A stretch of 64,000 nt of DNA from a candidate division WOR-1 bacterium RIFOXYB2_FULL_45_9 (GCA_001771575.1 MEUD01000001.1:415277-479276), one strand, 5' to 3'. Positions 21,144-36,398 are shown, counted from the first letter of the stretch. Numbers and translations are program-made. The notes: generated by a model from the letters alone, not told the origin.

Positions 21144-21216
21144 TCCCCGGTAGCGCAGTGGTAGCGCAGGTGACTGTTAATCACTTGGTCGTAGGTTCGA
21201 ATCCTACCCGGGGAGC
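21144..21216 (+). tRNA. tRNA-Asn (anticodon GTT)
   Basis: Manual cloverleaf: acceptor TCCCCGG/CCGGGGA, D-stem GCGC/GCGC, anticodon stem GGTGA/TCACT with loop CTGTTAA, T-arm GTAGG-TTCGAAT-CCTAC and discriminator G. Confidence 0.8.
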
Positions 21217-21248: not shown

Positions 21249-21541
21249 CAATTGCGTTCAGCAATTGGATTTTGCGAACCCCGGCGCTTGACGACGGGTG
21301 AGCAAAATCAAGGGTAGGATGAGAAAGGCGTTTTTGCGCCGAGCGAAGCGAGGATCAGCGAGCGACACTCCTGCCCTAGCAGGATGAGCGAGCGAAAGCA
21401 AAAACGCCATGTCCCGTAGTCGCCGCCCAAAGCGGCACGGAGGACGAAATCCTACCAGGGGAGGGCCGATTTTTTTTGATTATCTTCGAGAGTGTAAAAC
21501 TAGGCGCTACTCCCTGCCTGCAGGCAGGTTAGTATTACGGA

Positions 21542-21691
21542 CTATTTTCTAATTGCAAGTGGTCCAGTTTTTGGGGGGAAGGTCACCACAATATCGATAA
21601 TTTCCCAATAGATCCCCTGTTTAACCACAAATCCGCTCGCAACGAGCAAGGAAAGGCCGATGAGGAGCCAACCCTGGAGTTTATCGTGCAT
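21542..21691 (-). CDS. tiny single-TM peptide (49 aa) at the 3' end of the defence operon
   Basis: MHDKLQGWLLIGLSLLVASGFVVKQGIY... has one hydrophobic helix. An AAAGGA Shine-Dalgarno (SD) sequence lies 8 nt upstream, and the start is 2 nt after the stop of the upstream gene. Calling such a short ORF is uncertain. Confidence 0.25.
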   Translation of the reverse strand: MHDKLQGWLLIGLSLLVASGFVVKQGIYWEIIDIVVTFPPKTGPLAIRK

Positions 21692-21693
21692 AT

Positions 21694-22671
21694 TTAATCC
21701 TTTAATCTCTTTTTTGACACGGCACAAGCATCTTTTAATGATTTACAAGTGAATAAAGTATCCAACATGCACTTTAATCTCCCATTTGACCATATTTTGC
21801 CAATTGGCAATTCCTTTCTTGGCTCAAATGGTTCTCCCAAATATAATAAATAGTGATTTTTAACTTTACCTCTTTTTATCTCTGGGATTCGGCTATGCAT
21901 ATCAGCAACAATCTCATAAGATTTCACATAATGGATCGACTGCAATTTACCATCATATCTAAAACCCATATAATTGAGAGGTATTTTGGGCCAATTCTTT
22001 TCTGCTGGATAAAAGTAGAGGCGTTTTTTATTAATAACATCTCTCCAGGATATTTTTGACCATTTTGGTGTTTTATTCGATAGTGATACAACATAGACCC
22101 AATTAGATTCCTTGTTTTCCATTTGGACCTCCTCAAGCAAATATTTTTGCAGCTCTGATAAAAGATACTTTTCCTTATTTGATGCCTCATGGTAAATATA
22201 ATTAATTGTTTTAATCACATCATGCCAAGAAATTGACTTTATAGGAACCCCGCGAATTGATCGTTTTAAATTACCATTAAAATATTCTTCCGTGCAATCA
22301 CTGAGAACCAGAAACATTCTCTTGGTTCTCTTATAGCCGCCAAACCTCTCCCTGTATTTTTTGAGTTGGTCCAGGGTTGGCAAAGACCACCCCTTTTTTG
22401 CTTCTATGATACAAAAGAACCTATTATCAACAACAATTTCAATGTCCGTTATCCCCTTTTCCCCATGTTTTTGAAGACGAATAACAATATTATTGTATTT
22501 CATATCTCTGTTATACATTCGCTTGATTAAGGCTTTCACCAATCTTGGGACCCTTGCCATTGTATATCCCAAACTGTATGTTAAATCATTTTCACTAACG
22601 CCTAAAAGTTCAAATACGCTTTCAATTTGATCATCATTAATAGATATTACTGTTGATGGAGTTTTATTCAT
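21694..22671 (-). CDS. PD-(D/E)xK-like putative nuclease with an uncharacterised C-terminal domain, translationally coupled to hsdR
   Basis: 325 aa. The N-terminal segment GITDIEIVVDN...CIIEAKKGW fits the restriction-endonuclease-fold D...D/E-x-K motif. A 4-nt overlap with the hsdR stop and AT-rich codon usage link it to the island. Confidence 0.45.
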   Translation of the reverse strand: MNKTPSTVISINDDQIESVFELLGVSENDLTYSLGYTMARVPRLVKALIKRMYNRDMKYNNIVIRLQKHGEKGITDIEIVVDNRFFCIIEAKKGWSLPTLDQLKKYRERFGGYKRTKRMFLVLSDCTEEYFNGNLKRSIRGVPIKSISWHDVIKTINYIYHEASNKEKYLLSELQKYLLEEVQMENKESNWVYVVSLSNKTPKWSKISWRDVINKKRLYFYPAEKNWPKIPLNYMGFRYDGKLQSIHYVKSYEIVADMHSRIPEIKRGKVKNHYLLYLGEPFEPRKELPIGKIWSNGRLKCMLDTLFTCKSLKDACAVSKKRLKD

Positions 22672-25600
22672 GAGGCATACACGCTCTTTTCTGGGCCAGA
22701 ATACGCATCATAAACATGCTCATAAACTAACTCGCACTTCTGACTATAAACTGGCTTTGTGTATTTCTCGGGCAAATGGTCAAATACTTCATTTATCATG
22801 ACTTTGACCGCGGCCCTTGCCTCTTGTTTCTTGCGCCAATCGAGCACGAGCTTCTCTTGCTTTAGCTTTTCCAGCAGCTCTTTGGCCACTGCCTTGACTA
22901 CCCCCTCTTCTTTCTTGGTCAACTGCATGTCTGGCCTAGTTAAAATATCAAATACTGCTAATTCTTCTTCGGAAAGCCCTTCTGCGATAGTCCTCTTTTC
23001 TTCTTCGTTTAGCTGCTGGGCAAATTCGGTTAAACGTCTAAAGAATTCGTCAACGTTCATACTGCCGGCGTTATATTCATCGATCAATTTCTGAAACTTA
23101 TCCTGGAAGTCCAATCTGGTCCGGTTAAACCTGATCATTGTTCCTAAACGACGCTCAATCATCCCTTTCAGTTTTTCAACTTCAATATGCTTTCTCCCCT
23201 TTTCAAATTTGGCGCGTAAAGTCTCGAAGTCGATCTGGCTAAGATCGTAGATTCGGCTTTGCTCGGGCTTTTCGGCAATTACATAGCCTTCCGTGGAAAT
23301 CGATTCATCAAGAAGCTTATCGATCTCTTTCATCACTGCTGAAATGTCAGGCGGCGGCAATAACGATCGTATTTTGTTAGCGATAACTACGAATAATATC
23401 GCTAGTGGCGCTACCTCATGGGCAATTTTGTCCGGTAAGATAGCTTTGAATAAGCCATTAATCCGGGCAGCCATAACTAGGTAGGTTTTCTTCTGCTCTT
23501 CGGCTGCGATTATCATGTCCACCGCGTTATCAAGCAAGCCAACCTTAGCGAATCCTTCTGCGGCTAGGATTGCTTCAACATTAATCCCAAGATTCGAGCA
23601 GAATTCCGTTGTTTCTTGCAGTTGTTTCTTGAGAATCTCCACCAGCTCCGCCTTTTCGACAATTGGCGGCTCACCCGCTCCAGGGGTCGGCGCGTAGATC
23701 GCCAAAGCCTTTTGCAGGCTTTGGAAAACACCGACATAATCAACAATTAAACCGCTGACCTTGTCCTTAAAGACCCGGTTAGCCCGGGCGATAGTCTGCA
23801 TTAAAGTATGGTTGCGCATCGGCTTATCAAGATAGATGGTTGAACAGCTCGGCACATCGAAGCCGGTCATCCACATGGCACAGACAAAGACGATCCGGAA
23901 GGGATCGTTTGGATCCTTGAATTTTGTGGCTAAGTCTTCACTTACTATCCGGCGACGGTGCGGCTCGATCTCGACCCCCTTCTCCCGCATCTGGGCGATC
24001 TCATTTTGCGAAGAAGAGACCACTACAGCCATATCTGTCTCTTTAACATAGTTGATTAATTTTTCTAATGCGGCCCTCTCCTCTTCCGCAACCCCGCTCA
24101 ACTGCTTTTCCAACTCCTGCAAATATTCTTGCTGATATTTACGCACCTTATCGTACATTTTGACTGCCGTAACCTTATCAATCGCCACAACCATAGCCTT
24201 CCCTTTAAAGCCGCGGTTAAAGAAATGGCTTACTATATCTTTAGCAACTGTTTCCAGGCGATCGTTACGAGTAATAATGTGATATTGTCTGGCGAACTCT
24301 TGCTCCAACCGGGCTTGCTGGCGCTCATCCAGCTCAGCCGCTTCAACAATAGCGGCCATCTCATCATTTAAGCTTTCGTTTGTGAGCTGGACCTCGGGGA
24401 TTCGGTTCTCGTAATAGAGTGGCACGGTTGCCTTATCATCGATCGATTGCTTAAAGTTATAAACACTGACATATTCACCAAACACATCCTTGGTCTTCTC
24501 TTCTCCAACGATTAAAGGTGTACCGGTAAAAGCGATAAAAGAGGCATTAGGCAACGCTTGGCGCATGTTAAAGGCGAGCGTGTCATACTGGCTCCGGTGC
24601 GCCTCGTCCGTGATAACGATAATATCCGACCGCTCTGACACAACCCCCTGGAAGTTGAACTTATGGATCAGAGTAAAGATATAACGATGATTCTGACCCA
24701 ATAACTGCCGGAGATGGTCACCTGATTCGGCATGGATCTCTTGAGCAGTTATGGCGCCTGAATTGGCAAAGTTACCATAGATTTGCTCATCAAGCTCTTT
24801 GCGGTCAGTCACAATAACAAAGGTCCAATTGCCAGGGATCTTACGCAGGACTTTTTGGGCGAAAAAGATCATGGAAACGCTCTTGCCGCTCCCTTGAGTA
24901 TGCCAAAACACCCCCAGCTTGCCCTGTTTTTCCCTAATATCCTTAAATCCCTTAATAACGTTGTTGACGCCCAGATATTGATGGTTTTTTCCGATTAATT
25001 TAATTAGTCCGCCGCGAGATTGCATATAAGCGATATAGTTCTCAACGATATCAAGGAAGTTAGCCTTCTGACAGATCCCGCGGATCATCGTATCGAGGGA
25101 TATAACGCCTTGTTCGCCTTCACTATTGATCTTCTTCCAATCGGCAAAATGCTCCCACTCCGCAGTTATACTGCCAACTTTACTTTCGCTCCCATTGGAA
25201 AGGATAATAACGGCGTTATACCAGAATAGCTGGGGAATCGTGTTTTTATAATCGGTCAGGTTATCAATAAACGCGTTTTCTACCCGCTTATGTGCCGCTT
25301 TAAGTTCAATAAATAGTAAAGGGATACCATTTACAAACCCGACCAGATCAGCCCTTTTGGTATACATTTCACCGGTGACCCAGAATTGGGAAGCAAGGAA
25401 AAAGTCATTATTTTCGGACTTATCCCAATCGATAACTTTAACCGTTTCGGTCGTCTCTTCCTCTCGGCCTGTGGCGGGCATTGTAACGGGGACGCCATCC
25501 TTGAGCAGTTGGTAAACTTCCCGGTTGGCATTAACCAAGCTCATCGCACTCCGATCGCGCGTTATTTCTTCAATGGCCAGATCAATTGCTTCTTCAGTCA

Positions 25601-25796
25601 ATCCGGGGTTTAACTTATTCAAGGCGGGTCGTAGCCTTGAAACAAGAACAACTTCTCCCCGATTCTCCCGGCCCATAGTACTGCCGCTCGCCCGTTCGAA
25701 TTCTAGATAACAGTTAGCAGCTTGCCAGTTAAGATCTGTTAACAACCTGATTGTTGGTTGTTCAATTAATCTATCTTCCGAATAATGCGTTGTCAT
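22668..25796 (-). CDS. hsdR: type I restriction enzyme R subunit (helicase/endonuclease)
   Basis: 1042 aa with an HsdR N-terminus, Walker A (TQGSGKS), DEAH box (VITDEAHRSQ) and SF2 helicase C-terminal motifs. Confidence 0.9.
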   Translation of the reverse strand: MTTHYSEDRLIEQPTIRLLTDLNWQAANCYLEFERASGSTMGRENRGEVVLVSRLRPALNKLNPGLTEEAIDLAIEEITRDRSAMSLVNANREVYQLLKDGVPVTMPATGREEETTETVKVIDWDKSENNDFFLASQFWVTGEMYTKRADLVGFVNGIPLLFIELKAAHKRVENAFIDNLTDYKNTIPQLFWYNAVIILSNGSESKVGSITAEWEHFADWKKINSEGEQGVISLDTMIRGICQKANFLDIVENYIAYMQSRGGLIKLIGKNHQYLGVNNVIKGFKDIREKQGKLGVFWHTQGSGKSVSMIFFAQKVLRKIPGNWTFVIVTDRKELDEQIYGNFANSGAITAQEIHAESGDHLRQLLGQNHRYIFTLIHKFNFQGVVSERSDIIVITDEAHRSQYDTLAFNMRQALPNASFIAFTGTPLIVGEEKTKDVFGEYVSVYNFKQSIDDKATVPLYYENRIPEVQLTNESLNDEMAAIVEAAELDERQQARLEQEFARQYHIITRNDRLETVAKDIVSHFFNRGFKGKAMVVAIDKVTAVKMYDKVRKYQQEYLQELEKQLSGVAEEERAALEKLINYVKETDMAVVVSSSQNEIAQMREKGVEIEPHRRRIVSEDLATKFKDPNDPFRIVFVCAMWMTGFDVPSCSTIYLDKPMRNHTLMQTIARANRVFKDKVSGLIVDYVGVFQSLQKALAIYAPTPGAGEPPIVEKAELVEILKKQLQETTEFCSNLGINVEAILAAEGFAKVGLLDNAVDMIIAAEEQKKTYLVMAARINGLFKAILPDKIAHEVAPLAILFVVIANKIRSLLPPPDISAVMKEIDKLLDESISTEGYVIAEKPEQSRIYDLSQIDFETLRAKFEKGRKHIEVEKLKGMIERRLGTMIRFNRTRLDFQDKFQKLIDEYNAGSMNVDEFFRRLTEFAQQLNEEEKRTIAEGLSEEELAVFDILTRPDMQLTKKEEGVVKAVAKELLEKLKQEKLVLDWRKKQEARAAVKVMINEVFDHLPEKYTKPVYSQKCELVYEHVYDAYSGPEKSVYAS

Positions 25797-27112
25797 AATT
25801 GATTTACCATGTCATAGGAGGCTACAACATCCTTAATCTTATCTTCGCTGATTTTCTTTTCTCTTGCAAGCCTCATAACCCTCAAATGATACTGATTAAA
25901 TAATATTTTCTTCGATAATCTATTTAACCTGGCGATATATCTCACCCTTTGTCTTTTGTTTAACAAATCAAATATCTTGCCAAGATAATAACCACCTGCA
26001 TTCATTATGAATTTTTCATCAAGCACATTTGCAATTACCTTAGTTCGATATTTTGGGGCGAGCCCTGCGATATTGCAATTTATCATTCTTTTTAATATTG
26101 GGCTTCGTTTAAAGTCGACTCTTTTCCTAACTTTTTTCCTATACGCATCGTATGCCTTCTCAATGTCTTTGTGCTTTTTAGGGTTTTCCAATAGCTTAAA
26201 TATATCAAACGACCAATAATCGAAGAATTGCCTAGAAGTAAATAATTTTGCCTTACTAGCGTTAAGATTCAATCCTATCATTGCCAGCTTTTTTGATGCC
26301 AGAAACATGATCTCTTTTGCATCTTTTTCATTTTTTGATGCTATTATTTGATCGTCAGCATATCTTAGATACTTAGATTTCCTTTCTTCGCATATATCGT
26401 ACATATACTTGTCATATTCCTGAAGATAATAATTTGCTAATATTCTAGAACAATCCCCAACCTCATCTTGTGGTAATCCCGCACTCTGCTTCTCATAAAA
26501 CATATACTTTTTATTCCAATGCGATAAGAAATAAAATAGCAAATTAACATATTTAGTTTTCCGCTTGTCTACGGCTTCCCTTATTAATGCTTCCAATCTG
26601 TCCAGGCGTATTGAATCATAGAAGTTTGCAATATCAAATATAAAATAGTATTCATGATCTGATTTTGCATAGAGATTGTAAGCTCTCTTTTGATAATCAG
26701 TCCATGCACGTTTCCATGCAAATGAGTTGTAACTGTAATCTGGCATAGACACAATTTCGTCGTTATTTTCAATCTTCCGTATTTTTCCGCCTAATTTCCA
26801 GCCCCCATAGGTGCCCTTTACTCTATTTGCAGCTATTTCATCCTCAAGACTCTTAATACAATAATAGTAGACACAGTAGTCCTCTCTAGTAAGAGCGGGA
26901 ATAAAACGAACAACTAAATTCTCTTTATGTGATACAACAAATGTCCTGGGGGGAGATGGGGCATAAATCATTTTGTTAATCTTACCGACTAATTCCTTCA
27001 AGAATGAAATTCTATCGGGCGTCGAATCAGCGAATGGGCAATCGGTTTTATTGTGAATGTGCTTCCAGAATCTTTGCCCAACCACTTCGATAAAGTCGTT
27101 ATCTTTTAGCAT
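25793..27112 (-). CDS. reverse transcriptase (defence-associated, Abi/UG-like, non-retron context) embedded between hsdS and hsdR
   Basis: 439 aa with RT motif A (YYFIFDIANFYDSI), motif B (GLPQDEVGDCSRILANYYL), motif C (LRYADDQII) and a motif D/E region (IGLNLNASKAKLF). A basic helical C-terminal extension of about 140 aa follows. ATGA overlap with hsdR and a 20-nt gap to hsdS are consistent with translational coupling. Confidence 0.75.
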   Translation of the reverse strand: MLKDNDFIEVVGQRFWKHIHNKTDCPFADSTPDRISFLKELVGKINKMIYAPSPPRTFVVSHKENLVVRFIPALTREDYCVYYYCIKSLEDEIAANRVKGTYGGWKLGGKIRKIENNDEIVSMPDYSYNSFAWKRAWTDYQKRAYNLYAKSDHEYYFIFDIANFYDSIRLDRLEALIREAVDKRKTKYVNLLFYFLSHWNKKYMFYEKQSAGLPQDEVGDCSRILANYYLQEYDKYMYDICEERKSKYLRYADDQIIASKNEKDAKEIMFLASKKLAMIGLNLNASKAKLFTSRQFFDYWSFDIFKLLENPKKHKDIEKAYDAYRKKVRKRVDFKRSPILKRMINCNIAGLAPKYRTKVIANVLDEKFIMNAGGYYLGKIFDLLNKRQRVRYIARLNRLSKKILFNQYHLRVMRLAREKKISEDKIKDVVASYDMVNQL

Positions 27113-27132
27113 ATATATTCTTCTCTATCATA

Positions 27133-28296
27133 TTAACGATCATATATCTCTCTCCCTACCTCCCCGCCAATCAACTTCGGTAAAAGTAAATCGCGGGTTT
27201 GAACCAGAATTTTGTTCATGTTGACCAGGTTAGCCATCATTTGAAATGATATTGAAATCTTACCCTCAAAGTCATCTAATATTTCTCCAGGAATATCAAC
27301 GACTTCTAATCGCATTAGATCCTTTGGATAAACATGTGGTTGCGCCGCTCCTCTTTGAAAGTTGGTTACCTCATTTTGTCTATTTTTCAGCAACAAATAG
27401 AAATAATATAAGTATTTTGTGGTATTTCTATCAATAAAAGAGCAATCTGATGCCCAGATATCCTCATAATATATGTTTACATAGCCCGAGTTCGCTCCCG
27501 AAGCGCTAATCGTTATGACAGGAGCCTTTGTATTTGCCTTATTATGAAAATATGCCGGGCTTAACCCTCCAGCCACCACAGGAACTGCTCCCTCAATTAT
27601 TATCTCCCTGGTTATACTCTTGCCCTTTGCAATATCCACCTTTTCTCCTAATGTAATTACCTCCCACTTCTCCGGTATCTTCCCCAGCTTCGAATCAACC
27701 ATGTTCACCTTCTCATGCCCCGGAAAGCGGAAATTGACAAACCATTCGCTATAGATCATCTGCGCCATTTGTTCGATGATCTTTATCCGGCGGTTGTTGT
27801 TTTCGATCAGGTCGTCGTAGGCGGAAAGGATGGAGGCTATGCGGCGTTGTGTTGGGAGATCGGGGAAATTGATAACTAGGTCCTTAATTGATGCGATATC
27901 CGCACGTTGCCTACCAGATGCGCCAGCCATACTCTTTTCAGCGGGGCTTCTTATGGTTTTCGTAGTTGATAAATAATAAATATAATCTGGGTCAGAAATC
28001 GCTGATTTTGCTCTAAATACAAAGAATTCTGTCGAACCAAAAGCGGGGCTCCCTCTATATTGTGCAATTTTTCCATTCTCAAGACATGGTGTTATTCGGG
28101 CAAATAATGTGTCCCTGTCCTCAAATTTTGACCCGCCGCCTTTTAACTGTTTCTCTCCACTTGGGCTAACATACTTTGTTCCGGGTTGAATAGCCTCCAT
28201 CATAACAAATGGGTATTCCCCACCACGTTCCAGCTTTACTTTTGGATGAATTTCAACGCAATCCTCAAATCTTACTTTTCGCCAATTATTCTTCAT
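27133..28296 (-). CDS. hsdS: type I restriction-modification specificity subunit
   Basis: 387 aa with two target-recognition domains separated by a central conserved helix. It overlaps the upstream gene by 4 nt. Confidence 0.8.
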   Translation of the reverse strand: MKNNWRKVRFEDCVEIHPKVKLERGGEYPFVMMEAIQPGTKYVSPSGEKQLKGGGSKFEDRDTLFARITPCLENGKIAQYRGSPAFGSTEFFVFRAKSAISDPDYIYYLSTTKTIRSPAEKSMAGASGRQRADIASIKDLVINFPDLPTQRRIASILSAYDDLIENNNRRIKIIEQMAQMIYSEWFVNFRFPGHEKVNMVDSKLGKIPEKWEVITLGEKVDIAKGKSITREIIIEGAVPVVAGGLSPAYFHNKANTKAPVITISASGANSGYVNIYYEDIWASDCSFIDRNTTKYLYYFYLLLKNRQNEVTNFQRGAAQPHVYPKDLMRLEVVDIPGEILDDFEGKISISFQMMANLVNMNKILVQTRDLLLPKLIGGEVGREIYDR

Positions 28297-29315
28297 GGCC
28301 TTTGCTTAATATAATTATTAATCACTTCGTATACAGCGTTTGTATCTTTTCCTTCCAATCTTCCAATGTACCCTATTGGCATATGCTTAAACATTGCCTC
28401 TGTACCCTCCTTGATCATTTCAGATTTCGCTTCTGGCTCTGGATTAGTTGCAATATAATCCTGAAGGGTTTGCGCCACATTCCTTCTATGTGTGTTAATG
28501 GCATACATATTTGCATAAACGTTGTAATTTTTGGAAGCAAAACCCAGCCCATATGATACAACGGAAAGTAATGCCAACTTTGCTAATCCATATTCTAGAG
28601 TGAAAAAAGATTCTGGGCCAAAAACGATTATTCCAATACTTTTCATCATAAGAATACCAAAATACACGATAAAGTTAAAAGCGATGAGCCCTATTAAGAA
28701 CCAGAATGTTTTATCTCTATTGCCCAACCATTTCTCCATGCTCGCACGGTCTTCATTTGCCTGCTTTTCAAAATATTTGGCGAGAGTCACAGAGGCAATC
28801 TCGCCATGAGTAGTTTCGATTTCAGCCTTTTTTTGCTTCAAATTCTCTAGCTCATTTTGTAATTTTAGGGCTAATTCCTTGTAAACTATTTCCGCCTGCA
28901 CCGCCGCTTTTTGTTGTTTTTGCAGCTCTTCTTCATCCTTACTTTTTAATGCTGCTTCCTGTCTTAAATATACAAGGTTCGTTTTGGTTTGCTGAATCGT
29001 TTCGTTAGAATAACGCTCTATCTCTCCTTCCAACTGATCATGCAAAGGCTTGGGATTGGGATGGTTTAAATTAAAGCTATCGATTCTTTTTATATAATCA
29101 ACAAATCGTGTTTTTTTATTATCTATATCATCAATTTCGGGCTTCGATAAGATTGTTTTATACTGGAGTTCAGCAAATTCCCCAAATAAGCCCTGTAATC
29201 TAATCAAATATTCGGCGCTTTTTTGAAATTTTAATGCGCCATAATCATCCTTCATGGTTATCTTATTTATATCTATTTTACCTATTGAATCAATATCTAT
29301 ATTTTGTTCAGCCAT
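28293..29315 (-). CDS. coiled-coil protein with a C-terminal 2-TM hairpin, inserted between hsdM and hsdS (candidate abortive-infection/effector module)
   Basis: 340 aa. The N-terminal roughly 200 aa are strongly heptad/charged (QKQQKAAVQAEIVYKELALKLQNELENLKQKKAEIE). Two hydrophobic helices follow (FWFLIGLIAFNFIVYFGILMM and LAKLALLSVVSYGLGFA). A strong SD (GGGAGGG) precedes the start. Confidence 0.5.
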   Translation of the reverse strand: MAEQNIDIDSIGKIDINKITMKDDYGALKFQKSAEYLIRLQGLFGEFAELQYKTILSKPEIDDIDNKKTRFVDYIKRIDSFNLNHPNPKPLHDQLEGEIERYSNETIQQTKTNLVYLRQEAALKSKDEEELQKQQKAAVQAEIVYKELALKLQNELENLKQKKAEIETTHGEIASVTLAKYFEKQANEDRASMEKWLGNRDKTFWFLIGLIAFNFIVYFGILMMKSIGIIVFGPESFFTLEYGLAKLALLSVVSYGLGFASKNYNVYANMYAINTHRRNVAQTLQDYIATNPEPEAKSEMIKEGTEAMFKHMPIGYIGRLEGKDTNAVYEVINNYIKQRP

Positions 29316-29350
29316 TTTGCCCTCCCATTCATACTATTCGCCAGTGGGCC

Positions 29351-30853
29351 TTATAATCCCTTTTTTAATATAAGGCCGATATTATGCGATATTTTCTTTT
29401 CCAGTAGGTGCGATTCAGCATTTAGTTTTTCGAGCTCACCATTCAATCCTATGATTTTTTCCTTGAAGTCGTATTCTTCAGTCGGCCTTTCGGCGACTCC
29501 AACATATCTCCCCGGATTTAAGCTCCACCCCTGCTCTTCGATCTCCTTTAAGGTTGCCACCTTACAAAGGCCCGGCTTATCCTTTAACTTCCCTTGCCGG
29601 TATTGTTTGACCAGCCCGGCCAACATTTCAATCTGTTCCGGCTTAAAATCACGCAAAGCCCGGTTTATCTGATTAAAGGTGTTTCGGGCATCGATAAACA
29701 AGACTTTATTCTTAAGCGCCTTATCCTTCTCCTTATCAAAGAACCAGAGAGTCACTGGGAGTGTGACAGTATAAAAGAAATTAGACCCAACAGAGACGAT
29801 CACATCAACATGGCCCGATTTAATAAGCTGTTTGCGTATTTCCATTTCAGACGAACGGGCATCAGCCGCAGCATTCGACATAACAAAACCTGCCCGCCCC
29901 TTACTATTCAACGCACTGTAAAAGATCTGGATCCAGAGATAATTGGCATTATCTACGGTTGGTAGGCCAAACGGGAACCTTGGGTCGCCCTTAAGACTTT
30001 CAATGTCTACCCGATTAACATTAAAGGGAGGATTAGCCATCACATAATCGAACTTGCCGACACTTTTATGAATATCTTCTTTATAAGTGTTAGACTCACG
30101 GATATCACCTTCCAAGCCGTGAACCGCCAGATTCATTTTGCACAGCCTTACCGTCTCTTTGGTCTTTTCCTGCCCGTAAATGGATATTTCAGCGCTCGGC
30201 TTCTTCTTCCGCTCTTCGACAAAGCGTGCACTCTGGACAAACATACCGCCCGAGCCGCATGCTGGGTCTAAAATCTTGCCATGGAACGGCTCAATTATCT
30301 CAACGATTAGTTTAACAATAGATATTGGGGTATAGAACTCGCCCCCCTTCTGCCCTTCCGTCATCGCAAATTCACCCAAGAAATACTCATATATCCGGCC
30401 CAGCGTATCCCCATCATGCTCCATCGGGATTGAAGCCATTAATTTAATCAGCTCAATTAAGACCTTTTTATCAAGCTGGTTGTAGTTCCTGGGCAAAACG
30501 TCTTTTAAAGATGGGTTTTCTTCCTCGATCGCCTTCATCGCGGCATTGATAGCCTTGCCTATATCGCTACCTTCCTTTAGTTTTGACAAATAGTCAAACC
30601 TGGCAATTTCCGGCAAATACATTACCCCTTGCGCTTGATAATCTGCCTTGCCAATTGTGCGCCGGCCGGTCCCTTTGCTCGCTAGCTCTTTCTCGACAAT
30701 AGTAAATTTATGGTCAGCGTATCTCAAAAAGATAAGACCCAAGACAGGCGTGGAATATTCAGATGATTTCAGGTGCGAGTTAGCGCGCAGTTCGTCGGCA
30801 GCATTCCAGAGTCCTTTTTCAAGATCGGCTAGATTGTTTTCAGGTTCAGGCAT
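29351..30853 (-). CDS. hsdM: type I restriction-modification DNA methyltransferase subunit
   Basis: About 500 aa N6-adenine methyltransferase with NPPF (VMANPPFNV) and a SAM-binding motif. The start is assigned to the second Met (MPEPENN), which is preceded by AAGGAGG. The ORF-track start at 30883 lies in the promoter palindrome. Confidence 0.9.
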
Positions 30854-30865
30854 TTTGGGCCTCCT

Positions 30866-30913
30866 TATTCTAATTACAGGCATTTAATTAGAATATAGAT
30901 ATTTATATTCTAA
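30866..30913. promoter_or_regulatory. candidate operator/promoter upstream of hsdM: perfect 10-bp inverted repeat TTAGAATATA-N6-TATATTCTAA plus a third half-site
   Basis: Read directly from the sequence at 30888-30913. An additional TATTCTAAT half-site sits at 30866-30874, just upstream of the SD. Confidence 0.4.
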
Positions 30914-31177
30914 TCATCTAAGATCACGTTCTTATTTTACGCTTAGAATCAGGAAAAGCAAGGGAGATTAGCGGGGGAAAGGGACTGAGGGACTAAGGGA
31001 TAGCTAAATCCGACTGATCGTTAGACTTAACCTTATTTACACCCAAATAGCTCTTTTCGCCAGAGGTGCGGGGGAGGCGAAAAGGTAAGGAACTAAATAA
31101 TTTCTGACTCTCTAGCCGCATAATACATTCCCCCCTTCCTTGCCCCCCTCCCCCAAATAAACTATACTTAAATCAGC

Positions 31178-31687
31178 ATGTACAACATCATCGACTCCAT
31201 AAAAACTTATCTGCTCTCTAATGGTATGGAAATAGTAATCGACCTGCTGATCCTGGTCATCGGCATCTGGGTGGCTAAAGTCGCCTCGAACATCACCAAG
31301 AAGGCGATGATCAGATCAAAAGTTAATCAAACCCTGGCCCTTTTTGTCGGCAACGTCGTATATTACGCCATCGTAATTTTTGTGGTCCTATCTTTCCTGG
31401 AACGACTGGGGATAAAAACAACTTCATTTCTCGCCCTGATCGGCGCGGCCGGTCTGGCGATCGCACTGGCCTTGCAAGGCTCCCTCGCAAACTTCGCGGC
31501 AGGGCTCATGATCATCATGTTCCGCCCTTTTGAACTTGGGGATAAAATTGAAACGGTCGGCGTCTCCGGCGTCGTGGAAGAGATCCAGATCTTTAGCACC
31601 GTCCTCATAACCGCTGATCATAAACGAAAGATCATTCCGAACTCCAAGATAACCGGCGACGTCATCTCCGTGGAGATCAAACACTAG
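31178..31687 (+). CDS. MscS-family mechanosensitive channel-like protein (short form, 169 aa)
   Basis: Three TM helices with the pore-lining Gly/Ala-rich TM3 (LALIGAAGLAIALALQGSLANFAAGLMII) and the start of the beta domain. It is shorter than canonical MscS and lacks the C-terminal alpha-beta domain. Confidence 0.55.
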   Translation: MYNIIDSIKTYLLSNGMEIVIDLLILVIGIWVAKVASNITKKAMIRSKVNQTLALFVGNVVYYAIVIFVVLSFLERLGIKTTSFLALIGAAGLAIALALQGSLANFAAGLMIIMFRPFELGDKIETVGVSGVVEEIQIFSTVLITADHKRKIIPNSKITGDVISVEIKH

Positions 31688-32685
31688 ATTTTCCGTTTCT
31701 TGACTTCCTTCAGCGCGCTTTTGACCATTTTACCAAAATCTTTGTCTCTCTGTCTTTTTTCCAAGCTGGTCATGGCGTAATAATCGGTCTCTTTTTTTAA
31801 TTTGAGGTAATTTATATATTTCTCTTCGCTTAAATCGCCCGACTTGAGCGCGGTCAGCACGGCACACCCCGGTTCGTGTTGATGAGTGCAATCAATAAAC
31901 TTACAGGAACAGCCTATTTCTTCAATTTCCGCGAAAACACTTTTTATCCCCTCTTCGGCATCTGCCAGCCCGATCTCCCTCATCCCCGGATTATCGATGA
32001 TCATCCCCCCGTTCTTAAGGACAAAAAGTTCACGATGAGTAGTCGTATGCTTTCCTTTATTGGTTTGAGCACTGATCTCCTTGGTCGTTATCAGTTCTTC
32101 TCCCAATAATTTATTGGTCAGCGACGACTTGCCAACCCCCGAAGAGCCGAGCAAACAGTAGATTTGCCCCGGCTCGATCACCCGCGCCAGGCTATCGAAA
32201 CCGGTTAAGACGCTGGTGGTTAGTAGCGGGACCGCTTTAAAGCGCTCTTTTACCTGGGAGATTATTTCGGCCAGCTTTTCCGGGGAAACAAGATCAATCT
32301 TGTTGAGGAGTAAAACCGGGTAAATCTTTTCAGACTGAACGATCGTCAGGTAGCGCTCGAATCGATTTAAATTAAAATCACGGTCGACCGCTTGCACAAT
32401 AAAGGCGCAGTCGACATTAGCCGCGATCGTCTGAACCTCCTCCTTGCCGGCCGCTTTTCGCTTTAAAACGCTTTTTCTGGGGAGAATTTCTTCAATGAGG
32501 GCTCTGCCGTAGCCAAGATCGTTAATTTTAACCTGGTCGCCGACCGCCGGATAATCGAGCGGCGACTTGGCCGCGAAAATAATTTTACCGGCAACTTCAG
32601 CCCAAGCCTCCCCGCTTTCACCCAGAACACGGTACTTCCCCCGGTATTGGGCGACGACCCGGGCGGTTTTGATTTCGTTGTTCAT
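31684..32685 (-). CDS. rsgA: ribosome small-subunit-dependent GTPase A
   Basis: OB-fold N-terminus, GTPase G motifs (LLGSSGVGKSSL, circularly permuted) and a C-terminal zinc knuckle (CKFIDCTHQHEPGCAV). Start set at the internal Met (MNNEIK) because the ORF-track N-terminal extension is implausible. Confidence 0.8.
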   Translation of the reverse strand: MNNEIKTARVVAQYRGKYRVLGESGEAWAEVAGKIIFAAKSPLDYPAVGDQVKINDLGYGRALIEEILPRKSVLKRKAAGKEEVQTIAANVDCAFIVQAVDRDFNLNRFERYLTIVQSEKIYPVLLLNKIDLVSPEKLAEIISQVKERFKAVPLLTTSVLTGFDSLARVIEPGQIYCLLGSSGVGKSSLTNKLLGEELITTKEISAQTNKGKHTTTHRELFVLKNGGMIIDNPGMREIGLADAEEGIKSVFAEIEEIGCSCKFIDCTHQHEPGCAVLTALKSGDLSEEKYINYLKLKKETDYYAMTSLEKRQRDKDFGKMVKSALKEVKKRKI

Positions 32686-32801
32686 ACTATTTGTCCGGCA
32701 GAAAGAAACATTATACAAATAAATGCTTATTAATGCCACATCCTCAAAACAGATAGGTTGACAATTAATATTTATTGACATATACTTGACATATCAAGCA
32801 T

Positions 32802-33230
32802 ATGAAAAAGGCAAATGAACCAATAAGATTGATATTAGAGCTGGCAAAGACGCAGGCCATTGTTGGGCGTCGTTTTGACTGTGGGCTGGGCGGGCTTGGC
32901 TTCAATGAATTTACGATCCTATATAATCTTAGTATAGCAAGTGATGGAAAAATGCGCAGGATAGACCTGGCCAATAAGATTGGGCTTACCGCCTCCGGGG
33001 TGACACGGCTGTTACTGCCTATGGAAAAAATTGGACTAATTAAAAGCGGAGAAAGCGAAAGAGATGCCCGAGCTCGGTTTGTAACAATTGCTCCTGGTGG
33101 TGTCCTTAAATTAAATGAAGCGATCGAACGAATGGAACTGCTCCTGAATGAAATAATCCCTATGGATAAAAAGATCAAAATCGAAAAGATCTCGCAATTT
33201 CTTTCTGAATTAGGGATGCTTGCGCGTTAG
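32802..33230 (+). CDS. MarR-family transcriptional regulator
   Basis: 142 aa with the winged-HTH pattern (RIDLANKIGLTASGVTRLL). Confidence 0.7.
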   Translation: MKKANEPIRLILELAKTQAIVGRRFDCGLGGLGFNEFTILYNLSIASDGKMRRIDLANKIGLTASGVTRLLLPMEKIGLIKSGESERDARARFVTIAPGGVLKLNEAIERMELLLNEIIPMDKKIKIEKISQFLSELGMLAR

Positions 33231-33234
33231 CCTT

Positions 33235-33828
33235 ATGGATAGAGATGGACTGCTCCTCACGCAAATCGCCTTCAACAATCAAACCTTCGAGGAAGTCAGC
33301 CTTCAAGAAACAGACCTTAGCCACAAAGAATTTTCCGAATGCGCCTTCAATAAATGCGATTTTAGCGGTTCCAACTTTAGCGGAACTATCTTCAGCGACT
33401 GTACTTTTACCGGCTGTAACCTGGCCAACATCAAGGTCGAAGGCTGTGGTTTTCGCGGCGTCAATTTTACCGGCTGTAAATTGATCGGGGTTGTCTTTAT
33501 CAAGATCAACAAACTGCTTTTAGATTGGGGCTTTCAGAAATGTAAGATCGCCCTCTGCAATTTCAGCGGATTAAGTATTAAACACAGCCGCTTCACCGAT
33601 TGCGTCATCCAGGGGACCGATTTCGTCAACGTTGACCTTTCGGGAGCGACCTTCTCCGGCTGTGACCTGGAAAACAGCACCTTTCGCAACGCCAACCTGG
33701 AAAAAGCGAGCTTCGTCGGCTCGTGGAATTATTACGTCGACCCGACCCAGAACAAGGTTAAACAAGCCAAGTTCGCTTACCCCGAAGTCCTAGCTCTCCT
33801 CGCCCCTTTTGGGATCAAGATCGAATAG
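33235..33828 (+). CDS. pentapeptide-repeat protein
   Basis: Tandem A(D/N)LxX pentapeptides (FSGSNFSGTIFSDCTFTGCNLANIKVEGCGFRGVNFTGCKL...). Confidence 0.7.
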   Translation: MDRDGLLLTQIAFNNQTFEEVSLQETDLSHKEFSECAFNKCDFSGSNFSGTIFSDCTFTGCNLANIKVEGCGFRGVNFTGCKLIGVVFIKINKLLLDWGFQKCKIALCNFSGLSIKHSRFTDCVIQGTDFVNVDLSGATFSGCDLENSTFRNANLEKASFVGSWNYYVDPTQNKVKQAKFAYPEVLALLAPFGIKIE

Positions 33829-34476
33829 CTATAGATAGATCGTCACACCAAACTGACTGAAGCTAATCCCGGCGTCCATCCAGTTTGTTTGATTACTGCT
33901 GTTCTTGTACTTGATGCCCGCCAGGGTTAAACTGCCAAATTGATAATAAACGCCGAGCCCGATCGTTTCGGTCAGGTTGGTCCGCGTCTTGACACCGAGC
34001 AGGAACCCTGGAATACCGCCGCTGAAATCTCCAGCCGGCGATGGGGAACCGGCGACCGAAGATATCTCCTGCTGGGCGTTAAACCAGCCTAAATTGTAAT
34101 CGAGATAAGCGGAAACCGAATTACCGCCAAGTTCAAAATCAACGATCCCGCCCAGCGAGGCTTGGAATAACTGAAAAGCGTGCCAGGTGGAATTAAGCGG
34201 ACTGTAATTGAAAATAAAATGCGGCCCCGCTTTGACCGACGGCGCGACCGAATAGAACAGCGACGCTTCGCCGCCAAAGCCCAGGTTGGTTTCCGACTTC
34301 AGCGCCCCAAGATAAATTGAATCCGCGCTATCAAGCAATGAATTCCCGGTCGCGTTGACCAGAAAATTGACGTTCAAATCTCCGCCAAGGACGGCATAAT
34401 CGGTCGCTTTTGCCAGGCCGGCCAGACAAAAGGACAGGAAGATAACAAGCGCCATGAAAATCGTTGTTTTTCTCAT
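33829..34476 (-). CDS. secreted beta-strand-rich protein (possible outer-membrane beta-barrel)
   Basis: 215 aa with a signal peptide (MRKTTIFMALVIFLSFCLAGLAKA) and alternating hydrophobic beta pattern ending in ...FGVTIYL. Confidence 0.4.
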   Translation of the reverse strand: MRKTTIFMALVIFLSFCLAGLAKATDYAVLGGDLNVNFLVNATGNSLLDSADSIYLGALKSETNLGFGGEASLFYSVAPSVKAGPHFIFNYSPLNSTWHAFQLFQASLGGIVDFELGGNSVSAYLDYNLGWFNAQQEISSVAGSPSPAGDFSGGIPGFLLGVKTRTNLTETIGLGVYYQFGSLTLAGIKYKNSSNQTNWMDAGISFSQFGVTIYL

Positions 34477-34576
34477 TATTATGGATACCTCAAGAATATA
34501 TTTTTTGGTCCACTGGTTAAATTTAACTTAATGGCTTCCGGTTGTCAATCCAACTTCTTACTGCTATTATTCCTGC

Positions 34577-35566
34577 ATGAAGAGTGTCCTGATCACCGCT
34601 TTCGATTACAACGAAAAGCACTTCGTCGAGAAGGAGATCCCGCTCAACACCTGCGTTATCTACAAGAACAAGCCGACCATCACCTGGATCAACATCGACA
34701 GCATCCACGACCATAAAGCGGTCAAAAATATTTGCGATTGCTTCGGCCTGGCCCCCGCCGTCTACGAACAGATCATCGACCCGACCCAGAGGCCCAAGAT
34801 CGAAGATTATGGAAAATACTTATTCATCGTTTTAAAAATGTTCCTTAATAATAAGGAGACACTCAAAGTGGCCGACGAGCAGGTCAGCTTTATCATCGGC
34901 CCCACTTACGTCATCTCTTTTCAGGAAAGAGCCCTAAAAGAGGACGTTTTTGACCCGGTCAGGAAAAGGCTAAGGACCGCCGGCTCGAAGATCAGACAGT
35001 CCAGGGCCGATTACCTCGCCTACCGTCTCATTGACGCGGTGATCGACTATTACTTTGTCATTCTCGAAATTTTGGGAGACCAGATAGAAGAGATCGAAAA
35101 GGAAACGATCGCCAACCCGAGCAAAAAAACTTTGGTCCAAATGCAAAAAAAGCGAAAAGAGATGCTCTTTTTCCGCCGTTCGATCTGGCCAGTCAGGGAG
35201 ATCATGAACTCCCTGCAGAGAGGAGAATCAAAACTTATCTCCCCGGCGACCCAAAAATACATGCGCGGCCTCTATGAGCACACCATCCAGATCATCGACA
35301 CGATCGAGACCGAAAGGGATACGATGTCCTCAATGCTCGATATCTATCTGTCGAGCTTAAGCAACAAATTGAACGAGGTCATGAAGATCCTGACCATGAT
35401 CTCGACGATCTTTATGCCGCTGACCTTTATCGTGGGGATCTACGGAATGAATTTCCGCCATATGCCGGAGCTGGAATGGCGATACGGTTATTTTATGGTC
35501 TGGGGGCTGACGATCATCATTGTCTCCTCCATGTTCATTTATTATAAACGGAAAAAGTGGTTCTAG
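34577..35566 (+). CDS. corA: CorA-family magnesium/cobalt transporter
   Basis: 329 aa with a C-terminal two-TM region containing the GMN motif (IYGMNF). Confidence 0.85.
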   Translation: MKSVLITAFDYNEKHFVEKEIPLNTCVIYKNKPTITWINIDSIHDHKAVKNICDCFGLAPAVYEQIIDPTQRPKIEDYGKYLFIVLKMFLNNKETLKVADEQVSFIIGPTYVISFQERALKEDVFDPVRKRLRTAGSKIRQSRADYLAYRLIDAVIDYYFVILEILGDQIEEIEKETIANPSKKTLVQMQKKRKEMLFFRRSIWPVREIMNSLQRGESKLISPATQKYMRGLYEHTIQIIDTIETERDTMSSMLDIYLSSLSNKLNEVMKILTMISTIFMPLTFIVGIYGMNFRHMPELEWRYGYFMVWGLTIIIVSSMFIYYKRKKWF

Positions 35567-35576
35567 GATCTTAAAT

Positions 35577-35849
35577 ATGATCGCCGCTTATTACGTTTAT
35601 ATCATTGAATGCGCCAACCGCGCTCTTTACACCGGCATCACCAACAACCTTGAACGTCGTTTTAAAGAGCACCAAGCCGGTCGCGGCGCCCGCTACACCA
35701 GAGCTAATCCGGCGACCAGGCTCGTTTATAAGAAAAAATGCGGCAGTAAGAGCAGGGCGCTCAAACGGGAAGCGGCGATCAAGAAGTTGACCCGAGCGAA
35801 CAAATTAGCATTAATCAACAGCGCAGTGCTCCATGGTTCGCATTGCTAG
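35577..35849 (+). CDS. GIY-YIG nuclease-family protein (UPF0213-like)
   Basis: YVYIIECANRALYTGITNNLERRFKEH matches the GIY-YIG core. Start set at the internal Met (MIAAYY) to avoid a long overlap with corA. Confidence 0.6.
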   Translation: MIAAYYVYIIECANRALYTGITNNLERRFKEHQAGRGARYTRANPATRLVYKKKCGSKSRALKREAAIKKLTRANKLALINSAVLHGSHC

Positions 35850-36398
35850 TTCCCCCGCTTCAGCCATACTTTTACCCAGCGAGATAAAACCATGGTTCTT
35901 AATGATCAAAAAAATGTTCTCGCCCAATGATTCCATGATCTGATCGGCCAATTCCAGGGTCCCGTATGGCTCTTCCCGCTCCGTGCAAGTCAGCCCCATT
36001 CGGGCGCAATTATCAAGCAATTTTTGACAATGGCCGTGAAAGATCGCGTTGACCTCCGGCCTCTTTTGATAGATCAAATAATGGAACATACTTTCCGAAG
36101 AAGGTTCCCGCTGGCCGACGGCGTAAACGATCTTTTTCTCCAGATCGACCCGGTCGACTTTCACAAAACTCTCCGCCGCCGATGTTTCTTTCATCCCGGA
36201 AGAAGTGATAATAAATCGGTTCTCCGGTTTCAGCCGAAAACTTAGATTCCCGTAAACCCCGCCCTCATAGGACGGCATTAGCCCGCTTTGCGTGAATTGA
36301 TCGCACCATTTTTTCAACTCATCGATCCGCGGATCTCCGGGGACCTGCCGGTCAAGGAATTCAGTGGTAAATTTGGGGGCGACCTTCCCTTCAGCCAT
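35811..36398 (-). CDS. mtnB: class II aldolase/adducin-family protein, probable methylthioribulose-1-phosphate dehydratase
   Basis: 195 aa class II aldolase fold with a His cluster (IFHGHCQ). Adjacent to mtnA. Confidence 0.55.
   Translation of the reverse strand: MAEGKVAPKFTTEFLDRQVPGDPRIDELKKWCDQFTQSGLMPSYEGGVYGNLSFRLKPENRFIITSSGMKETSAAESFVKVDRVDLEKKIVYAVGQREPSSESMFHYLIYQKRPEVNAIFHGHCQKLLDNCARMGLTCTEREEPYGTLELADQIMESLGENIFLIIKNHGFISLGKSMAEAGELAMRTMEHCAVD

Follow-up and report, generated by a model that had tools for sequence, protein, structure and literature searches.

Do genes that are packed between and behind the genes of a type I restriction–modification (R-M) system belong to that system, or does the system merely house them? 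This question is raised by a 64,000-nucleotide stretch of DNA from the candidate division WOR-1 bacterium RIFOXYB2_FULL_45_9 (GCA_001771575.1 MEUD01000001.1:415277-479276), the whole of which is termed the window herein. One of its operons combines hsdM, hsdS, and hsdR with three accessory genes, encoding a 340-residue coiled-coil and membrane protein (2TM), a reverse transcriptase (RT) of the UG13b group, and a 325-residue predicted nuclease (p325). Most probably, the locus is a horizontally acquired, canonical type I system that scaffolds three independently acquired, co-oriented defence-type cassettes, and layered defence would be its mechanism. The cargo is regarded as separately gained because related loci lack the accessory genes, because other cargo occupies the same slots in those loci, and because the GC content at third codon positions (GC3) is a mosaic.

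The operon is composed of seven consecutive open reading frames (ORFs) on the minus strand that span 21542-30883 (Table 1). Going from hsdM to a small terminal ORF, the junctions measure 35, -4 (ATGA), 20, -4, -4, and 2 nt. The segment 21540-30920 has a GC content of 0.411, compared with 0.525 in the rest of the window. Among 141 segments of equal length elsewhere, the lowest value is 0.505 (mean 0.531, standard deviation 0.012), which places the island about 10 standard deviations below their mean. GC3 of the island ORFs ranges from 0.33 to 0.51, compared with 0.657 +/- 0.048 (minimum 0.544) in 46 flanking ORFs. The AT-rich block is real and far beyond chance, and the description of the locus as an AT-rich, single-strand, horizontally acquired defence island is supported. 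Among the island genes themselves, GC3 amounts to 0.50 for hsdM, 0.51 for hsdR, 0.415 for hsdS, 0.34 for 2TM, 0.355 for the RT, and 0.325 for p325. Much of the initial annotation of this DNA is thereby borne out. It had described seven tightly packed minus-strand ORFs, all of which are found as placed and with exactly the gaps it gave. It had called the island AT-rich, and both the sliding-window GC and the GC3 comparison lie clearly below the flanks. Its assignments of type I hsdM, hsdS, and hsdR genes, an RT, a PD-(D/E)xK protein, and a membrane/coiled-coil protein are correct, and the lack of an integrase that it reported is matched by family searches, which return none among the seven island ORFs.

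The distribution of the accessory genes was assessed in 80 metagenome loci that share 59-76% identity in hsdR and 56-83% in hsdM with the window. None of these 80 loci contains a homologue of 2TM, of the UG13b RT, or of p325. Their usual layout is hsdM-hsdS-hsdR with 4-nt overlaps. In the slot between hsdS and hsdR, the two genes abut in 22 of 53 loci (gap <=150 nt, nearly always a 4-nt overlap), and at least one inserted ORF, mostly on the same strand, is present in 27 of 53. The slot between hsdM and hsdS is closed in 37 of 41 loci and holds an insert in 4 of 41, and a same-strand ORF follows hsdR within 100 nt in 20 of 60. The inserted cargo of these sister loci is of the defence type and changes from locus to locus; it comprises Schlafen AlbA_2/HATPase_c_4, GmrSD (HEC-05/06), Fic, and AAA_21/AAA_15 proteins (AbiLi, AriA-like, HEC-01A), along with DUF4238 proteins, UvrD-like helicases, and the PADLOC candidates PDC-S13, PDC-S54, and PDC-M04. 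The closest relative (L151; hsdR 76% and hsdM 83% identical) has both slots filled, by Bro-N/PDC-S13 and DUF4238-Pers instead. Each accessory family of the window, in turn, has a distribution of its own and is met in other contexts or alone.

The scaffold itself is a complete, canonical, and intact type I R-M set, as judged by family matches. HsdM matches Pfam N6_Mtase (4.4e-90) and HsdM_N (8e-23) as well as PADLOC MTase_I (1.5e-213), and its translation shows the NPPF catalytic motif as 'ANPPFN'. HsdS matches Pfam Methylase_S (8.8e-25) in two stretches, corresponding to two target-recognition domains, and PADLOC Specificity_I over its full length (6.6e-72, residues 3-380). HsdR contains Pfam HSDR_N (3.3e-44) and SWI2_SNF2 (6.4e-73), plus ResIII, T1R_D3-like, and T1RH-like_C regions. 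It reaches 518.6 bits against the NCBIfam hsdR model (2.6e-155; cut-off 284.55) and shows 'DEAH' and 'D...ELK' motifs. The longest ORF of hsdM adds 10 residues in front of its probable true start, Met11, whose ATG lies at 30853 with a GGAGG at 30860-30864. Alignments of hsdM homologues begin at residues 5-28, and at 13-23 in loci linked to 2TM.

Table 1. Features of the type I locus and its surroundings; positions are counted from the first nucleotide of the window.
Feature	Position	Strand	Description
hsdM	29351-30883	-	510 aa as longest ORF; type I N6-adenine DNA methyltransferase subunit
2TM	28293-29315	-	340-aa coiled-coil/membrane protein between hsdM and hsdS; uncharacterised family
hsdS	27133-28296	-	387 aa; type I specificity subunit with two target-recognition domains
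RT (UG13b, UG/Abi family)	25793-27112	-	439 aa; between hsdS and hsdR
hsdR	22668-25796	-	1042 aa; type I restriction subunit, nuclease and superfamily 2 (SF2) translocase
p325	21694-22671	-	325 aa; after hsdR; PD-(D/E)xK and PUA-like, predicted
Small ORF	21542-21691	-	49 aa, one hydrophobic segment; gene status unsupported
tRNA-Asn(GTT)	21144-21216	+	ARAGORN; Rfam tRNA 73.1 bits
16-nt copy of tRNA-Asn 3' end	21448-21463	+	pattern search; attachment-site-like scar between tRNA and island
28-nt palindrome	30887-30914		inverted repeat; candidate operator or promoter element

Type I operons that carry additional genes have precedents. Genes embedded in such operons have been described under the heading 'guilt by embedding', and 96.7% of them share the orientation of the operon (Payne et al. 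2024, bioRxiv 10.1101/2024.01.29.577857). TgvAB is embedded in the type I R-M system of Vibrio cholerae VPI-2, the proposal being that a type I and a type IV-like system together deal with phage DNA whether it is modified or not (PMC11411939). Further examples include PrrC in EcoprrI and the rlo genes of Campylobacter. The window resembles these operons in its same-strand extra genes between the hsd genes and in cargo that changes from one related hsd locus to the next, with known or candidate defence genes among it. It differs from them by filling three slots at once—methylase to specificity, specificity to restriction, and behind hsdR. A search of the PADLOC defence catalogue (v2) identifies the RT as UG13b and matches the hsd genes; 2TM and p325 match none of its models, the PDC candidates included, which is a further difference. 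The view that such an arrangement has not been described is hence right for this combination of genes and too broad for embedding as such, which is known from the work of Payne et al., from TgvAB, and from PrrC.

The RT matches the PADLOC model RT_UG13b from residue 3 to 437 (2.6e-149, 495.9 bits; model positions 2-428 of 430), whereas the next-best model, UG21, reaches 3.3e-34; the Pfam match to RVT_1 is 1.8e-13. Its catalytic YADD motif is intact ('RYADDQ'), and R250, D253, and D254 are invariant in 33 homologues. By its sequence, it is a full-length UG13b member of the UG/Abi family. An identical protein is recorded in the databases for the candidate division WOR-1 bacterium RIFOXYA12_FULL_52_29. 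A defensive role of UG13b has been predicted only, on the basis of individual loci (Mestre et al. 2022, PMC9226505), and no later paper mentioning UG13b was found in a literature search. A C-terminal alphaRep (alpha-helical repeat) domain defines Class 1 UG/Abi RTs, and the class of UG13b is not stated in the main text of that study (Mestre et al., PMC9226505). In the main texts of the UG13 literature that were searched, embedding in type I operons is unmentioned.

The neighbourhoods of the RT were compared in 74 genome loci, about 57 of which hold true UG13b relatives with a callable RT ORF. Among these 57 or so, the RT adjoins type I genes in five loci (L001, L005, L027, L030, and L035), a type IIG enzyme in L002, type III mod/res genes in L004 and L040, and McrBC in L035; it is otherwise solo. 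A conserved partner gene was sought by clustering four genes on each side, and no family is common to more than five loci. No evidence was seen for a template RNA beside the RT: the flanking gaps measure only 20 nt and -4 nt, Rfam finds only the tRNA, and in many homologous loci, too, the RT is flanked by coding DNA without any non-coding space. The RT is thus treated as an autonomous single-gene unit that, by analogy with other UG/Abi RTs, would act by abortive infection. It agrees with the UG13b group in being full-length with respect to the model, in its YADD motif, and in forming a single-gene unit within defence neighbourhoods. It stands apart by its translational coupling to hsdR and by the lack of flanking non-coding DNA able to hold a template RNA. 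Three observations concern other RT loci. In L027 (8768-12048; Saccharimonadales), the slot between hsdS and hsdR contains a Shedu SduA-like gene, a UG13b RT, and a Hypoth_Ymh protein in a row. The Hypoth_Ymh protein is also found immediately behind the RT in four further loci, all from Clostridia (L044, L046, L048, and L049). The sister locus L091 (hsdR 63% identical) carries a different RT just upstream of hsdS (856-2106), which is group-II-intron-like; in PADLOC, the generic RT model fits it best, UG17 scores lower, and UG13b reaches only 1.8e-20.

For p325, no family in Pfam, PADLOC, NCBIfam, or PHROG matches at threshold, and a protein search returns 278 homologues. The residues D76, E90, and K92 are invariant in an alignment of 57 homologues, 22 of which show weak matches to PDDEXK_4. 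In the secondary structure, the α/β N-terminal half bears these D-E-K residues, and the C-terminal half is rich in β-strands. Because of this division, 'nuclease plus reader' is the natural reading of the protein. The N-terminal part is predicted to be a PD-(D/E)xK nuclease fold with conserved catalytic residues, and the C-terminal part a PUA-like domain of the YTH/ASCH/EVE type. Structure matches among PUA-like modified-base readers include AF2351 (7.7), VcaM4I (7.1), YTHDC1 (7.0), ASCH (7.0), PH1033 (6.7), McrB-N of T. gammatolerans (6.1), and THYN1 (5.8). Foldseek returns the same kinds of proteins (MspJI, EcoT38I, NucS, and TTHA0113) without significance, and at the sequence level there is no match to the EVE, YTH, ASCH, or SRA families nor, by profile search, to any solved structure. 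As modelled, p325 is a predicted modification-dependent, type IV-like nuclease. EVE-PD(D/E)XK fusions have already been proposed as type IV enzymes (Bell et al. 2020, PMC7641849). With these and other enzymes that read bases through PUA-like domains (MspJI, VcaM4I, T. gammatolerans McrB-N), p325 shares a predicted PD-(D/E)xK core, the D-E-K triad, and a β-rich domain, and like them it is encoded by a single gene of its own, which lies in defence or mobile regions and frequently adjoins R-M genes. It differs in that the nuclease seems to be N-terminal and the reader C-terminal, and the likeness is one of structure, with no sequence-level match.

The gene follows hsdR directly in three loci (L080-L082) and lies beside another type I system in an archaeon (L083). 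In a Heliobacterium island that also contains methylases, HNH genes, and an integrase, it stands alone, as it does on plasmids of Paenibacillus, Salinimonas, and Mycobacterium. In viral contigs, it is found beside methylases, non-specific nucleases, and AAA_15/21 genes. Because these contexts are so varied, p325 is regarded as autonomous. Its pairing with a type I system would fit the logic of TgvAB and BrxU, by which unmodified and modified DNA are both covered. In the public annotation, the gene encodes 288 residues from an internal Met; the 325-residue form is supported because homologues align from residue 1.

The third accessory protein, 2TM, matches nothing at threshold in Pfam, PADLOC, NCBIfam, or PHROG. 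Hydropathy indicates a strong transmembrane (TM) segment at residues 206-224 and a weaker one at about 243-262. The AlphaFold2 model is a long helical hairpin (pLDDT 81, pTM 0.43); a fold search with it yields only generic coiled-coil, BAR, and translocator matches, and a profile search against solved structures gives nothing meaningful. The protein has 49 close homologues. Its profile retrieves 3166 representatives at E<=1e-3, of which 1633 also pass E<=1e-10 and 92 pass E<=1e-30. The best 150 matches listed (all E<=4.5e-26) measure 92-398 aa, with full-length proteins of about 320-350 aa and many shorter, partial ones; none of these 150 has the length that would be needed to include a methylase, specificity, or restriction subunit as well. 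No homologues were found in viral contigs or plasmids. Against the SLATT/DUF6161 families of membrane effectors, 2TM itself gives no hit, and distant members of its superfamily reach 15.9-20.4 bits, compared with a DUF6161 cut-off of 27. DUF6161 has been flagged as an anti-phage candidate by a language-model study. Weak hits to NNH7 occur in 7 of 45 close members and weak hits to HeLo in 4 of 45.

What characterises 2TM is its position. Ten readable contexts collapse to nine independent lineages (pairwise identity <=66%), seven of which place the gene between that of a methylase and that of a specificity subunit. These seven are the window, L075, L078/L079, L177, L180/L181 together with L184/L185, L186, and L182/L183. 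In L177, the homologue follows an AbiEi/AbiEii pair. In L182 (5028-9402) and L183 (1-4138), it stands between a methylase fused to HSDR_N_2 and a specificity-like subunit, with no hsdR; this module may be a BcgI-like (type IIB) system with an embedded 2TM. The remaining two lineages are solo genes beside housekeeping genes. Compared with other cargo (27 inserts between hsdS and hsdR, 4 between hsdM and hsdS), the slot preference of 2TM yields p = 2.6e-5 in a Fisher test, in which loci of different R-M subfamilies are pooled. Relative to the window, the hsdM genes of the 2TM loci are only 44% identical and their hsdR genes about 32%. Because these genes are so diverged, it is concluded that 2TM has spread across distinct R-M systems with its position retained.

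This position tentatively suggests that 2TM is a guard effector similar to those of the Ronin and PrrC systems. In Ronin (ronA-hsdS-hsdM) and PrrC-EcoprrI, the R-M complex keeps an effector in check until phage anti-restriction proteins free it (Silas et al. 2023, bioRxiv 10.1101/2023.04.06.535777). 2TM is likewise a membrane protein recurrently and tightly linked to hsdM and hsdS, and one of its lineages has no separate hsdR. However, RonA is a 61-aa peptide with a single TM segment, whereas 2TM comprises 340 aa with a long coiled coil. Furthermore, most 2TM loci keep hsdR, and two homologues are solo. It is conceivable, though doubtful, that 2TM defines a widespread and undescribed class of R-M accessory: a large analogue of RonA and PrrC, found mainly in uncultured lineages, that is wired to the M2S1 complex of type I and of fused nuclease-methylase systems and acts as a membrane-damaging abortive-infection effector once released by anti-restriction.

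In the mechanism proposed for the scaffold with its cargo, all three cassettes would be transcribed together with the hsd genes from the region upstream of hsdM. HsdM2S1 is predicted to methylate host DNA, and HsdR2M2S1 to cut unmodified incoming DNA. Phages that evade the type I system by base hypermodification would be met by p325 as a stand-alone modification-dependent nuclease. The UG13b RT would act as an autonomous single-gene defence of the UG/Abi type, probably through abortive infection. 2TM would be held inactive by the HsdM/HsdS complex, in keeping with its gene at the methylase-to-specificity junction. A phage anti-restriction protein that neutralises HsdM/HsdS would then free 2TM, and membrane damage would follow, in the manner of a PrrC- or Ronin-like guard.

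The initial annotation had understood all seven genes as one type I system elaborated with dedicated partners, that is, as a co-evolved unit with three obligate partners of HsdMSR, namely the RT, the membrane protein, and the PD-(D/E)xK protein. The single strand, the three ATGA overlaps, and the short gaps would fit the translational coupling of such a unit, and the block is compositionally foreign as a whole. However, tight same-strand packing is normal for embedded cargo, as the figure of Payne et al. demonstrates. The accessory genes are absent from all 80 related loci, no locus retrieved for one accessory family holds another, and each family occurs elsewhere, with the RT and p325 often being solo. 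In addition, the accessory genes are distinct in composition, with GC3 of 0.33-0.36 compared with 0.50-0.51 for hsdM and hsdR. The idea of a single co-evolved system is already largely refuted by these distribution data and is highly improbable. It is also quite unlikely that the accessory genes are passengers without a defence role, be it as leftovers of mobile elements or as selfish insertions, for example an RT from a retroelement and a membrane toxin of the addiction type. In favour of this reading, 2TM and p325 are absent from the PADLOC models, and the sister locus L091 carries a group-II-intron-like RT. Against this, the RT of the window is a full-length UG13b protein, neither a group II intron nor a retron RT; the seven island ORFs include no intron, transposase, or integrase gene, and Rfam reveals no group II intron or other known RNA besides the tRNA. 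The ORFs are intact, with catalytic residues conserved across 33-57 homologues. Homologues of the RT and of p325 adjoin R-M, McrBC, Shedu-like, toxin-antitoxin, and nuclease genes, and the same slots in sister loci hold validated or candidate defence genes. Several points also weigh against the type I scaffold with defensive cargo. Co-transcription is inferred from gene spacing only, the functions of the accessory genes are predictions, and for UG13b, to which the RT is assigned by sequence, defence has only ever been predicted. Solo copies of 2TM are unexpected for a toxin that needs restraint by HsdMS, and its slot statistic carries the pooling of subfamilies mentioned above.

A further proposal concerns only the mode of arrival and is compatible with the scaffold-and-cargo explanation: the block may be an integrative island targeted to tRNA-Asn whose integrase was lost. 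It would draw on the strong compositional deviation of the block and on the tRNA-Asn(GTT) gene, which lies 325 bp from the last island ORF. It would also draw on a copy of the tRNA 3' end, which reads AATCCTACCAGGGGAG compared with AATCCTACCCGGGGAG in the tRNA (21200-21215), with one mismatch and followed by a T-run. A pattern search for the tRNA 3' end gives 2 matches in the window, and 0 of 100 shuffles gave at least 2. The copy resembles an old attachment-site scar, left by a previous integration. Nevertheless, an island bracketed by tRNA-derived repeats had to be rejected, as both copies lie on the tRNA side and enclose only the 232 nt between them. No third copy occurs anywhere in the window, including at or beyond 30.9 kb, there are no other direct repeats flanking the block, and an integrase is missing. 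Of the earlier claim that the island sits at a tRNA-Asn hotspot, the proximity holds up; the hotspot itself is a plausible candidate, and integration at this tRNA with later loss of the integrase is possible, albeit on the unlikely side.

The 49-aa ORF that closes the operon probably does not belong to the system. Its hydropathy peaks at residues 5-23, and an AAGGA precedes its ATG by 8 nt. No homologue lies beside other p325 loci or anywhere outside near-identical genomes, the database cluster to which it belongs holds nothing but this ORF with an alternative start, and its single PHROG match (E=0.033) is not significant. It had been counted as a tiny TM peptide gene of the operon, which is unsupported as a conserved gene, and the idea of a conserved RonA-like peptide is not supported either.

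At the other end of the operon, just upstream of hsdM, the palindrome (ATTAGAATATAGAT|ATTTATATTCTAAT) is formed by two 14-nt arms that are 93% complementary and have no spacer; it may serve as an operator or promoter element of the operon. A scan for promoters and terminators gave counts no higher than in shuffles, with σ70 consensus rules that may not fit this phylum. The operon contains no regulator gene, and in the sister locus L080 hsdM is preceded by a helix-turn-helix gene. Between hsdM of the window and an MscS-like gene, stretches rich in purines and in pyrimidines (gggggaaagggactgagggactaaggg and ccccccttccttgcccccctccccc) are found at 30960-31000 and 31130-31155. Three flanking ORFs were scanned and are of the housekeeping type (MscS-like, RsgA, and MntP/YtaF-like), and none matches an integrase family. 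The MscS-like ORF (31178-31687) has only 169 aa, matches positions 21-176 of the 286-aa MscS model without the C-terminal cytoplasmic domain, and meets the 3' end of rsgA with its own 3' end. On this MscS/RsgA side, the GC content at 31001-36000 is 0.466-0.485, which is below most of the window (about 0.50-0.58) and above the island.

Taken as a scaffold with cargo, the locus would be a compact natural example of layered immunity in a single operon. For annotation, this means that multi-gene, seemingly elaborated R-M operons are to be read as scaffolds with exchangeable cargo and not as single systems. Three candidates are supplied by it: the UG13b RT group, an uncatalogued family of predicted type IV nucleases, and the 2TM family with its fixed position. 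Herein, the methylase-to-specificity position of 2TM is the most valuable lead, followed by the nuclease family. If 2TM guards M2S1, this would explain how an insert is tolerated at the normally tight hsdM-hsdS junction, and the sensing of anti-restriction would extend beyond the Ronin and PrrC systems of E. coli to many uncultured bacteria.

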